Shown: positions 48,973 through 50,186 of the stretch, one piece after another
How the letters are laid out: each line of letters begins with the position of its first letter
Position numbering within the stretch: position 1 is the stretch's first letter
Source of the DNA: Escherichia phage LF82-1
Direction: 5' to 3' (one strand)
DNA length: 64,000 nucleotides
Sequence record: PV648359
Notes under the pieces: model-generated
What the model was told of the DNA's origin: nothing
The model's input: the letters and a program-made list of their open reading frames with translations, nothing else
The model's database searches: none
Position numbers and translations under genes: made by a program

Positions 48973-49221
48973 TTATTTCCTCAGATTTTTCTTAACAACT
49001 TTCCAATCGGCTTTAAACGATTCAACATCAGAATGGTGAATCCAGAATCCTGCGCTTTCACCATCTTCGTAGAGTGGACATCCATCACATTCTTCATTCC
49101 AACCCATTTCACGTAAAGATGTTTCAGCTTGTTCAAGGAGTTCAGCATCTTTATCAAGGATGTTGAAGTACCATTTGCCTTTAACTTCAGAGTCGTTAAT
49201 GCTTTGGCGTTGTAATTTCAT
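48973..49221 (-). CDS. hypothetical protein (frd.x region)
   Basis: 82-aa ORF with own early-type promoter. Confidence 0.45.
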   Translation of the reverse strand: MKLQRQSINDSEVKGKWYFNILDKDAELLEQAETSLREMGWNEECDGCPLYEDGESAGFWIHHSDVESFKADWKVVKKNLRK

Positions 49222-49286
49222 TTTATTCTCCGTTGCTTCATTTGTTTTGACAGGGTAATAGTATCACACCATTACCCTGTTGTATA

Positions 49287-49649
49287 CTATTTTATTCCAA
49301 AAATTTCTTTAATTTCTGCAATCACATCTCGAGCATTTTCTGTAGTCACTTCAAAGATGAGTGATTGTTTAGAAATAGACTCTGGAGATACCTCGATGAA
49401 GTGTTTAAACTCATCATCATAAAGCTCAAAATATGAACCTGGCTTACCATCAAAACCGAATTCAGTACCGTCTCGCATAGTTACACGGGTTACACATTTA
49501 TCATCATCATAATCTGTGTTCATGTCTTTTACAACAAAACTAGGACCATGAAGCTCAATCAAAGCCAGCATATCGGCGTTTTGTGGGCATTCATTGGCGA
49601 AGATAGCTTTACATTCTGGATTGATGATATAAGTTTTTCCAATTTTCAT
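49287..49649 (-). CDS. hypothetical protein, tandem paralogue 1
   Basis: 120 aa; shares IGK.YIINP..K..FANEC...HGPSFVV...VTRVTM.DGTE with the neighbouring ORF. Confidence 0.5.
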   Translation of the reverse strand: MKIGKTYIINPECKAIFANECPQNADMLALIELHGPSFVVKDMNTDYDDDKCVTRVTMRDGTEFGFDGKPGSYFELYDDEFKHFIEVSPESISKQSLIFEVTTENARDVIAEIKEIFGIK

Positions 49650-49710
49650 TTTGATTTCCTCTCATTTGTTTTGATAGGACTACTATAACATAGCCCTATC
49701 TGATTGTACA

Positions 49711-50097
49711 CTACTTTTTAAAAGTTTTTTGCAAAAGTTTGATGATTTCGTCGACGTTGGTTTCATCTACGATACAATGGATTTTTGTTACACCTAAAGT
49801 TATACCTTCGTTAGTAGATTGAGGCTTTTCTAAAGTTACCTCAGTAAAGTATTTGAATTCTTCAGAGTAAATCTCAAAATACGTCTCAAGTGGGCCACCA
49901 GCCATGTATTCAGTGCCGTCTTCCATAGTTACACGTACCACACAGTCACCAGCACAATCATCACTTTCCATTTCATCTACAACAAAACTAGGTCCGTGCT
50001 TCTCTATTAAATTTAGCATCATTACATTGCAACGGCACTCGTTAGCAAAGTCATCTTTAAATAAAGGGTTAATGATATAAGATTTTCCGATTTCCAT
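49711..50097 (-). CDS. hypothetical protein, tandem paralogue 2
   Basis: 128 aa; paralogous to 49287-49649; own promoter. Confidence 0.5.
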   Translation of the reverse strand: MEIGKSYIINPLFKDDFANECRCNVMMLNLIEKHGPSFVVDEMESDDCAGDCVVRVTMEDGTEYMAGGPLETYFEIYSEEFKYFTEVTLEKPQSTNEGITLGVTKIHCIVDETNVDEIIKLLQKTFKK

Positions 50098-50186
50098 TTT
50101 GATTTCCTCATGTTGTTGATAGGTTTATACTAACACATTCAGGGAAGAAGTAAACAACTTTTTCAGCAATTTACAGATACTCAAAA

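Follow-up and report, generated by a model that had tools for sequence, protein, structure and literature searches.

The locus described here lies in a 64,000-nucleotide stretch of DNA (the window) that represents a Mosigvirus-like T-even phage and has a sequence match to Escherichia phage LF82-2. All genes of the region are on the minus strand, and the order in transcription is gene 32, FRD2a, FRD2b and frd.1 (Table 1). Because of this shared orientation the small open reading frames (ORFs), which an earlier note on this DNA had placed upstream of gene 32, are in fact downstream (3') of it by transcription, between 32 and frd. The product of gene 32 shares 83% identity with T4 gp32, and PV648360 lists it as a single strand DNA binding protein. 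At the other end of the group, the frd.1 homologue has 77.5% identity with T4 Frd.1 and passes Pfam DUF5417 with 119.3 bits, against a gathering threshold of 23.9.

Table 1. Features of the gene 32 to frd.1 locus, with positions in the window.
Feature	Position	Strand	Remarks
Gene 32 (ssDNA-binding protein)	50211..51110	-	299-aa ORF; upstream neighbour by transcription
Gene 32 intrinsic terminator, GGGAGACTTCGGTCTCCC then TTTT	50183..50204 (hairpin 50187-50204)	-	The IG1 "hairpin"
IG1 early-type promoter (predicted): GTTTAC, 17-nt spacer ending TGT, TAGTAT	50127..50155	-	Strict motif match
FRD2a, 128-aa frd.2 family member (Pfam FRD2)	49711..50097	-	Itself a mosaic
IG2 early-type promoter (predicted): (TA)GTGTACA, 17-nt spacer, TGT, TATAGT	49682..49711	-	Overlaps FRD2a stop codon
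IG2 hairpin: GATAGGGCTAT, loop GTTATA, GTAGTCCTATC	49673..49700	-	3' arm over -10 and start region
FRD2b leader and Shine-Dalgarno region (AACAAATGAGAGGAAATCAAA)	49650..49672	-	Start of exchanged block is near
FRD2b, 120-aa diverged frd.2 paralogue with its own C-terminal module	49287..49649	-	PF03197, E 2e-21
IG3 early-type promoter (predicted): (TA)GTATACA, TGA, TACTAT	49258..49287	-	Overlaps FRD2b stop codon
IG3 hairpin: ACAGGGTAATGGTG, loop TGA, TACTATTACCCTGT	49250..49280	-	-10 hexamer within 3' arm
frd.1 homologue (DUF5417), 82 aa	48973..49221	-	PF17438, E 8e-35
Exchanged block: FRD2b leader, FRD2b, IG3, first ~120 nt of frd.1	49102..49680	-	Absent from LF82-41

Both central genes represent frd.2, as alleles or paralogues that have diverged. 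BLASTP aligns FRD2a and FRD2b with 52/90 identities (58%) at E 3e-33, a significant match rather than a chance-level one, and both proteins exceed the whole-protein gathering threshold of 29 bits for Pfam FRD2 (PF03197), FRD2a with 114.6 bits and FRD2b with 76.9; both also match phrog_622. The paralogy that the earlier note had read from shared sequence blocks is therefore confirmed. At the DNA level, where identity is ~65%, the homology covers the leader together with ~270 nt at the beginning of the coding sequence and is found again at the stop codon and 3' flank, and the C-modules have 14% identity. With divergence of this order, the pair appears to be old and not the product of a recent local duplication. 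When the N-domains are compared in a bootstrap tree (50 replicates), FRD2a and FRD2b fall into one supergroup, apart from T4 frd.2, and the N-domain of FRD2b has 70% identity to the single-copy frd.2 allele of T4_ev151 and ZCEC15, versus 58% to FRD2a. The N-domain of FRD2a, in turn, is 97% identical at the nucleotide level to that of RB51, amid surroundings that are Mosigvirus-like. FRD2 is carried by ~880 T-even genomes; FRD2b at an identity of at least 90% is confined to 21 phage records. Ultimately, the FRD2 types are likely to go back to an ancient tandem duplication at some point in T-even history.

Frd.2 has been assigned an LSm-like fold, within a predicted LSm/SH3-like family that also holds T4 GoF and MotB.1 (PMC12152347) and whose hallmark is an N-terminal domain with a bent beta-sheet of five strands. 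A predicted structure model of FRD2, for which FeoA was the top fold match, is compatible with this assignment, and FRD2b differs from the family by its own C-terminal module. Direct sequence and profile matches between FRD2 and GoF are weak (non-significant at BLASTP E 0.65 and an hhalign probability of 0.2%, with a PHROG goF match at E 0.004), so the link to that family comes from the published structure-based work and the fold search, not from sequence. Searches of the window by phmmer with the T4 proteins as queries returned no homologue of GoF or MotB.1 at E <= 1e-3. Amber mutants of T4 frd.2 plate normally (PMC12152347), and frd.2 was scored as a fitness gene in a T4 CRISPRi-ART screen (PMC11879866); it is the sole fitness gene with unknown function in one such screen.

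In front of each of the three small ORFs, -35, TGn and -10 elements are arranged as in T4 early promoters. Elsewhere in the window the strict pattern GTTTAC-N17/18-TAnnAT is found 10 more times on the minus strand and never on the plus strand, with 0.5 expected; a generic sigma-70 scan was uninformative (16 sites against 12.4 expected), and T4-early-specific patterns were used instead. IG1, which precedes FRD2a, matches the GTTTAC hexamer in full, and its predicted start is near 50120; inspection by eye for middle or late promoters in IG1 found no MotA box at the correct distance from a -10 and no TATAAATA. The -35 hexamers of IG2 (GTGTAC) and IG3 (GTATAC) are each one base off GTTTAC, the -35/-10 spacing is TGTACA-17-TATAGT and TATACA-17-TACTAT, respectively, both with TGn, and the predicted start of IG2 is near 49675. 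The TAG stops of FRD2a and FRD2b overlap the -35 elements (TAGTGTACA and TAGTATACA), and the A-rich stretches upstream of IG2 and IG3 are the coding 3' ends ..AAAAAGTAG and ..AATAAAATAG. A Shine-Dalgarno sequence, GAGG or GGAG, stands 6-8 nt ahead of each ATG. Judged from these motifs, IG1, IG2 and IG3 are predicted to be active promoters, of which IG1 would drive FRD2a and IG3 would drive frd.1.

IG1 is 97% identical to IG1 of Mosigvirus G2469. The IG2 cassette is 97% identical to one in ESh15, and its promoter and hairpin differ by a single base (T/C at ~49679) from the frd.1 cassette of phage 55 and LF82-41. IG3 is orthologous to the T4/RB51 frd.1 promoter (RB51 92%, T4 87%, G2469 72%). The earlier note had described the same cassette, a hairpin and a promoter, ahead of each ORF. 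A site resembling an early-type promoter is indeed present at all three positions, but the resemblance is generic and the hairpin layout differs. Gapless identity among IG1-IG3 is 0.41-0.59, compared with 0.46 +/- 0.09 (maximum 0.68) for the other early cassettes of the window, so the three are no more alike than any two early cassettes found there, and IG1 is as distant from IG2 as from unrelated cassettes. The strings supposed to be common to the three are likewise confined to single cassettes, GTTTAC to IG1 and TGTGATACTAT to IG3. What precedes each ORF is the generic early-promoter cassette of the phage.

What had been taken for the hairpin of IG1 is the intrinsic terminator of gene 32, a separate element ~30 nt upstream of the IG1 -35 that is kept after gene 32 in relatives and is the only terminator-like site in a scan of 47900-51400; IG1 has no embedded hairpin (z +0.4). 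IG2 and IG3 do fold, with stems inside the promoter: the spacer holds the 5' arm, and the 3' arm extends over the -10 to about +1. The IG2 hairpin has 11 bp and a folding energy of -16.0 kcal/mol (z -3.4 against shuffles; core z -6.6), and one of its pairs is G-C, G-U or A-U across relatives; the IG3 hairpin has 14 bp and -19.1 kcal/mol (z -4.7 against shuffles; core z -7.4). Hairpins reach significance in IG2 and IG3, and in 7 of 12 cassettes of the window, and a hairpin also folds at the frd.1 promoter of every one of the 27 relatives in which the motif search located that promoter. The arms differ by lineage (AGGGTA/TACCCT, GGCTAT/ATAGCC, GGAGCTAT/ATAGCTCC, GGTGTAAGAT/ATCTTACACC). As the stem register moves by 1-5 nt among lineages in a gapless 13-sequence alignment, we used an arm-swap energy test rather than column-wise pair counts: native arm pairs have a mean of -16.7 kcal/mol and swapped chimeras -9.2, and the arms therefore covary. 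The RNA fold of the sense strand is more stable than that of the antisense strand in 21/24 cassettes, and 38/281 pairs are G-U. Since the TACTAT hexamer stands opposite the TGTG of the extended -10, promoter constraints could account for some of the inner stem and some of this G-U bias. A search of Rfam gave two sub-threshold chance matches only (E 0.35 and 0.39).

In the terminator scan no U tract follows the IG2 and IG3 stems, which are followed by CAAAAC instead, so these hairpins are not canonical intrinsic terminators. With the predicted start downstream of the stem, they would be transcribed only in read-through RNA from upstream, where they are probably attenuators or 3'-end protectors. 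A different reading is that IG2 and IG3 are inactive as promoters, that their hairpins are either terminators, weak or decayed, or signals for RNA processing, and that FRD2a, FRD2b and frd.1 are co-transcribed from IG1 and by read-through from gene 32. The imperfect -35 hexamers fit this reading, as do their variation among relatives (GTTTAT, GTGTAC, GTATAC) and the annotation of the equivalent G2469 hairpin as a putative terminator by other groups; in ATK47 and phage 55, moreover, the cassette between the FRD2 genes is reduced to a -35 remnant and the leader, so co-transcription works in those two phages. We nevertheless regard it as unlikely. The distance from the -35 G to the -10 T is 30 nt in 27/27 extracted frd.1 cassettes, in which TGn and TAnnAT are invariant; the orthologous site in T4 and RB51 carries a perfect GTTTAC; extended -10 promoters tolerate a weak -35 (PMC2988021); and the missing U tract speaks against terminators.

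When the window is set beside LF82-41, the boundaries of the change at this locus become apparent. LF82-41 is 98-100% identical on both sides of a block that contains FRD2b, a gene that it does not have. The left end of the block falls at ~49669-49680, where LF82-41 is identical through CCTATCAAA in IG2 and divergent after it. The right end lies within frd.1, at or after ~49102, and 17/17 nucleotide differences between the frd.1 genes of the two phages are located within nt 5-120. The block, including the 5' part of frd.1, is common to Mizar and contig L006. As the layout of LF82-41 is the common RB69-type layout, we infer by parsimony that the FRD2b block was gained here rather than lost there. 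The block measures ~570 bp; its surroundings are nearly identical in the two phages, and it begins inside a promoter cassette and ends inside the following gene. LF82-2 and LF82-41, which share host and source, thus form an unusually clean before/after pair for shuffling of the promoter-early stem-loop (PeSL) type.

Gene content and order between 32 and frd.1 vary widely among the 19 IMG/VR loci and the GenBank phages examined, and two FRD2 copies recur in this interval in variable order. Other Mosigviruses, namely ESh15, ATK47 and phage 55, have the same two FRD2 genes in reversed order, with FRD2b and the same leader directly after CCTATCAA of IG1, which marks a second insertion site. FRD2b is thus seen after the (C)CTATCAA box of two cassettes, IG1 in ATK47, phage 55 and ESh15, and IG2 in the window. 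An FRD2b-like N-domain belongs to the sole frd.2 copy of T4_ev151 and ZCEC15, and between 32 and frd.1 of the metagenomic contig L033 the one FRD2 gene is a full-length gene of the FRD2b type.

These comparisons bear on the suggestion in the earlier note that complete transcription units were duplicated locally. The homologous tandem genes, each with its own promoter-like cassette, are there, but duplication in place is not supported as it was put, and the comparison with relatives runs against it, with FRD2b missing in LF82-41, the sole copy elsewhere and in reversed order in others. If a unit of promoter and frd.2 had been duplicated in tandem in this lineage, with the second copy then diverging, the genes would be adjacent and in the same orientation, as they are; the homology that reaches the leader and the stop codon with its 3' flank, and the N-domain supergroup that sets FRD2a and FRD2b apart from T4 frd.2, would also be accounted for. 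However, the low identity of the two copies is set against flanks 98-100% identical to a sibling without FRD2b. The FRD2b N-domain is nearer that of T4_ev151 than that of FRD2a, single-copy genes of the FRD2b type exist, the order is reversed in three phages, the FRD2a N-domain is itself RB51-like within a Mosigvirus-like setting, and IG1 is no nearer IG2 than unrelated cassettes are. We consider such a duplication improbable. The sole-copy FRD2b types, the reversed orders and the LF82-41 junctions fit better with a diverged allele that was inserted by recombination into a promoter cassette.

In the reading that we favour and think probable, the frd-32 interval is a hyperplastic region of PeSL-type cassettes in which two frd.2 alleles were stacked by ectopic recombination. 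From 5' to 3', a cassette comprises the AT-rich tail of the upstream gene with its stop codon, a predicted early promoter of T4 type (sigma-70, extended -10) with an embedded stem-loop, the conserved box (C)CTATCAA(A/C)A.. at the start and leader, the Shine-Dalgarno sequence and the ATG. The recipient would have resembled LF82-41 in its layout 32-FRD2a-P-frd.1, which is canonical for Mosigvirus, and the donor would have carried P-FRD2b-P'-frd.1. On the left, two non-allelic cassettes would have crossed over within their promoter/start box; on the right, the crossover would lie inside frd.1. The outcome would be three consecutive small genes, each retaining its own early promoter. The frd.2 gene exists as several mosaic, stackable alleles, which helps in the choice of constructs for probing its function.

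Two further ideas concern what the hairpins may do in such exchanges. We give little credence to the first, in which the embedded hairpin and the (C)CTATCAA box would form a defined crossover core, recognised by a phage nuclease or used in template switching, and the two-copy FRD2 state that recurs in several T-even lineages might be selected; it is raised by the landing of FRD2b and its leader after the box at two cassettes and by the preference of the arms for sense RNA, and, if true, the recurrent two-copy state might supply two LSm-like paralogues with different C-modules. That the inverted repeats instead act as DNA, as extruded cruciforms or hairpins that are cut (e.g. by endonuclease VII) or bound by a factor and serve as recombination hot spots rather than RNA elements, is very unlikely: the left junction does lie in or beside the 3' arm of the IG2 hairpin, but the G-T wobbles of the sense strand are A-C mismatches on the other strand, the sense folds are the more stable, the arms covary rather than stay conserved (which also disfavours a sequence-specific protein site), and the shared junction motif CCTATCAA is mostly outside the stem or at its edge.

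With ectopic recombination at early-promoter cassettes as the preferred reading, the locus can be placed among known systems. The PeSL cassettes of T4-type phages (Arbiol et al. 2010, PMC2839356; Comeau et al. 2014, PMC4122927) have the same parts, namely an AT-rich upstream stop, an early promoter, a stem-loop that often covers the -10 and contains G-T pairs, and a Shine-Dalgarno sequence with ATG. They are likewise clustered in hyperplastic regions, where flanking genes are inserted, deleted or swapped between close relatives, and "half" cassettes likewise occur beside rearrangements. The window has several of their defining features in the form of predicted early promoters with ~17 bp spacing, stem-loops, intergenic position and association with indels; promoter and terminator/attenuator activity and the formation of mini-circles between flanking cassettes are further hallmarks of the class. 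The published T-even stem-loop (PST/T4) differs in lying just upstream of the promoter, whereas in the window and at the T4 frd.1 promoter it sits within the spacer and -10, which is the arrangement of the PeSL subclasses of RB49/phi1.

The T4 frd.3-frd.2-frd.1 cluster has the same position and strand, the same succession of gene 32 terminator and early promoter, and the same FRD2 and DUF5417 genes, and its frd.1 promoter, TAGTTTACA..AGGGTAGTAGTGTGATACTATTACCCT, is the orthologue of IG3. T4 differs in having frd.3 and one frd.2, whereas the window has two FRD2 genes and no frd.3. Between its promoter and frd.1, T4 also has a hydrophobic ORF of 22 codons, so far unannotated, which the window lacks; an NAD-cap preprint describes frd.3 RNA as an abundant NAD-RNA in T4. 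Internal-protein (IP) genes of T-even phages shuffle in a similar way (Repoila et al. 1994, as discussed in PMC2839356 and PMC4122927): there, too, small non-essential early genes are exchanged among related phages at conserved flanking regulatory sequences, although at another locus and in another gene family. The FRD2 locus is a clear but ordinary case of the known cassette shuffling at T4-type early promoters, and not a new kind of element.

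All genes of this stretch lie on the minus strand and, in transcription order, the small genes therefore fall downstream of gene 32, not upstream of it as the earlier note had placed them. They occupy the interval equivalent to that housing frd.3, frd.2 and frd.1 in T4. Over 48500-50260 the window has the same sequence (100% identity, unshifted coordinates) as Escherichia phage LF82-2 (PV648360) and several sibling LF82 phages; the closest classified relatives are Mosigvirus (RB69-like T-even phages). The 63-aa ORF 3' of frd.1 had no match in Pfam or PHROG; it is found in the sibling phage LF82-41 and, at 80% identity, in comparison locus L009, and is missing from Mizar and G2469, with the 81-aa ORF likewise missing from Mizar. 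These presences and absences of the two ORFs are additional indels of this hyperplastic stretch, in this case without promoter cassettes between.

Features of the gene 32-frd interval and of comparison loci (L numbers); window positions unless a locus is named
Feature	Position	Strand	Remarks
gene 32	50211-51110	minus	first in transcription order
IG1 (gap gene 32/FRD2a)		sense	gene 32 terminator GGGAGACTTCGGTCTCCC-TTTT, ~30 nt, then GTTTAC-17-TAGTAT
FRD2a	49711-50097	minus	second
IG2 (gap FRD2a/FRD2b)		sense	TAG-TGTACA-17-TATAGT
FRD2b	49287-49649	minus	third
IG3 (gap FRD2b/frd.1)		sense	TAG-TATACA-17-TACTAT
frd.1/DUF5417	48973-49221	minus	fourth
63-aa ORF	48779-48970	minus	between frd.1 and frd
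81-aa ORF		minus	between 63-aa ORF and frd
frd	47951-48538	minus	followed by td
Exchanged block	49102-49680	minus	roughly 570 bp; FRD2b leader, FRD2b, IG3, frd.1 5' part
Further cassettes with strong inverted repeats in spacer/across -10	33603-33631, 37499-37528, 39623-39652, 41029-41058, 42213-42242	minus	
FRD2b homologue, ATK47	L029 1501-1863		90% identity
FRD2b/second-FRD2 spacer	L029 and L030 1864-1888; L028 1864-1892		
22-codon ORF	L002 (T4) 3016-3084 = T4 146015-146083	minus	also L008, L026, L027, L028, L033

The paralogy of the two frd.2-family genes, FRD2a and FRD2b, was borne out: BLASTP aligns the proteins with 52/90 identities (E 3e-33), and both score above the Pfam FRD2 threshold. 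The third ORF belongs to DUF5417, the family of T4 frd.1. The alignment of the FRD2a and FRD2b units takes in the leader, the coding sequence and the 3' flank, with ~65% nucleotide identity, and the copies are therefore old. Amber mutants of frd.2 plate normally (PMC12152347), and frd.2 was the sole T4 'Fit' gene of unknown function in a CRISPRi-ART screen (PMC11879866).

The earlier note had seen one hairpin-plus-promoter cassette before each of the three ORFs and read this as local duplication of whole transcription units. A promoter-like site is present at all three, with TGn preceding the -10 in each, but a separate upstream hairpin occurs only in IG1, where it is the gene 32 terminator, and each of the strings quoted as common to the cassettes has an exact match in just one of the three. 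GTTTAC-N17/18-TAnnAT has ten minus-strand matches in the window and no plus-strand match (0.5 expected from shuffles), the strict sites sharing the consensus GTTTACAA(A)C..GG..TGTGATACTAT, then (C)TATCAAC(A)AC..GAGGAAA..ATG. Anchored on the -10, identity is 0.44 for IG1-IG2, 0.41 for IG1-IG3 and 0.59 for IG2-IG3, against a mean of 0.46 +/- 0.09 (maximum 0.68) for unrelated cassette pairs. The three are thus no more alike than unrelated cassettes, so a common cassette is by itself no evidence of duplication. The frd.1 Shine-Dalgarno region (49225-49234) reads GGAGAATAAAATG, as in most relatives examined, a few having minor variants such as GGAGAACAAAAATG; the FRD2 leaders have GAGG where the frd.1 leader has GGAG. 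GGAG within an early Shine-Dalgarno sequence is the target motif of the RegB endoribonuclease.

LF82-41 shares its host and source with this phage. Over gene 32, IG1, FRD2a (100% at the amino acid level) and all that follows from about nt 120 of frd.1, it matches the window at 98-100% identity, yet it lacks FRD2b. Between FRD2a and frd.1 it carries the canonical Mosigvirus frd.1 promoter cassette, which matches IG2, bar one C/T, up to ..GTAG(C/T)CCTATCAAA, diverging thereafter; in frd.1, all 17 nucleotide differences fall within nt 5-120. These junctions in IG2 and in frd.1 delimit the differing unit as the exchanged block (Table), which is common to Mizar and contig L006 and whose IG3 is of T4/RB51 type (92% and 87%), not Mosigvirus type (72%). 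We infer that FRD2b was gained rather than lost, since LF82-41 has the arrangement common to the RB69 type. The simplest reading of these alignments is that ectopic recombination between non-allelic promoter cassettes at the left end, and allelic recombination within frd.1 at the right, would have placed a foreign frd.2 allele in tandem after the resident one. The generic cassette, the divergence of the units and the LF82-41 junctions all speak against local duplication and for such cassette-mediated stacking of diverged alleles; the original observation was largely real, with the orientation wrong and the three units over-unified. This FRD2b leader is also found directly after CCTATCAA of IG1 in ATK47, phage 55 and ESh15; the junction motif thus recurs at a second insertion site.

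FRD2 proteins are two-module mosaics, the N-domain (~90 aa) and C-module having different histories. The FRD2a N-domain is 94% (amino acid) and 97% (nucleotide) identical to that of Tequatrovirus RB51, vs ~70% and 76% for Mosigviruses, and its C-module is 97% and 98-99% identical to Mosigviruses. FRD2a is itself a recombinant: along the gene, the first ~270 nt match RB51 at 97% and Mosigviruses at 76%, and the last ~117 nt match Mosigviruses at 98-99% and RB51 at 81%. Its AT-rich 3' end (..KTFKK-TAG) also forms the region upstream of the promoter that comes next. For the FRD2b N-domain, identity is 70% with the single frd.2 of T4_ev151/ZCEC15 and 58% with FRD2a, and the two C-modules (14% identity) are unrelated at the sequence level.

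At >=90% identity, FRD2b occurs in 21 phage records only. Copy number across relatives, which the earlier note had proposed as a check, varies. FRD2b is absent from LF82-41. In metagenomic contig L033 the interval from 32 to frd.1 holds a single FRD2 gene, a full-length FRD2b type (68% identity), and the cassettes on either side of it again contain embedded hairpins. ESh15, ATK47 and phage 55 have the two genes the other way round (32-FRD2b-FRD2(RB69 type)-frd.1), with a promoterless 25-29 nt remnant alone between them. Contig L006 has FRD2b (99%) with a first copy of RB69 type, not RB51 type, and other T-even lineages carry other FRD2-type pairs and frd.3 in varying orders. The ATK47 homologue has no CDS annotated in KT184309 or NC_055708, frd.2 being annotated on the second FRD2 gene only.

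Folding places an 11-bp hairpin in IG2 (-16.0 kcal/mol, z -3.4) and a 14-bp hairpin in IG3 (-19.1 kcal/mol, z -4.7), both inside the promoter: the 5' arm lies within the spacer, and the 3' arm spans the -10 to the predicted start. Such hairpins, with z <= -4 or nearly so, occur in 7/12 window cassettes, IG2 and IG3 included. Examples elsewhere in the window are TTGGTACAGGT..ACCTGTACCAA (z -8.8) and GGTGGAGTT..AACTCTACC (z -6.0); five cassettes (50155, 34075, 26714, 14223, 11370) have no such strong inverted repeat. For comparison, 19 IMG/VR loci retrieved by way of frd.1 were combined with GenBank regions of T4, G2469, Mizar, RB51, ZCEC15, T4_ev151, ESh15, ATK47 and phage 55; a motif search located the frd.1 promoter in 27 relatives, two more loci falling outside the search pattern. 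Identical geometry and a 10-14 bp hairpin were found in 27/27, with arms that vary by lineage yet stay complementary (AGGGTA../..TACCCT, GGCTAT/ATAGCC, ATGGGGC/GTCCCAT, GGAGCTAT/ATAGCTCC and GGTGTAAGAT/ATCTTACACC). Native arm pairs fold at a mean of -16.7 kcal/mol vs -9.2 (sd 4.4) for chimeras in which the spacer comes from one class and the -10/downstream part from a different one; only 15% of the chimeras, mostly near-identical class pairs, attain the weakest native value. One IG2-type pair is G-C in phage 55 and G2469, G-U in the window, ESh15 and ATK47, and A-U in L006. The sense RNA folds more stably than the antisense in 21/24 cassettes, with 38/281 pairs being G-U. These patterns favour selection for base pairing in the sense-strand RNA; promoter constraints could explain part of the bias. 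The predicted start is immediately 3' to the stem, so the hairpin would exist only in read-through RNA from upstream. A terminator scan found no U tract after the IG2 and IG3 stems; by analogy with tested promoter-early stem-loop (PeSL) elements, the hairpin may act as an attenuator or 3'-end protector.

Several relatives have a conserved hydrophobic ORF of 22 codons (MFAPYIMAAVMLVCLYLLIKAC), with a Shine-Dalgarno sequence of its own, between frd.1 and the frd.1 promoter. The window lacks it, and it has no annotation in NC_000866 or AF158101. Because three of the five nucleotide differences in the ESh15 copy (MLAPYIMAVVMLVCLYLLIKAC) are synonymous, the comparison suggests that it is translated.

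[quoted passage not shown] Promoter and terminator activities were demonstrated for examples from phi1/RB49, and PeSL-PeSL recombination accounted for indels and yielded mini-circles (PMC2839356); the concept was later widened to T4/PST and KVP40/nt-1 (PMC4122927). The locus is thus not a new element type but a well-documented fresh case of a known mechanism in a known hyperplastic region. The ATK47/phage 55 spacer from FRD2b to the second FRD2 gene, TAA-GTACAGCACAAATGAGGAAATCAAA, has the look of a cassette from which spacer, hairpin and -10 were lost, leaving the leader and a -35 remnant, and in this reduced form it resembles the 'half PeSL' of Comeau et al. 2014.
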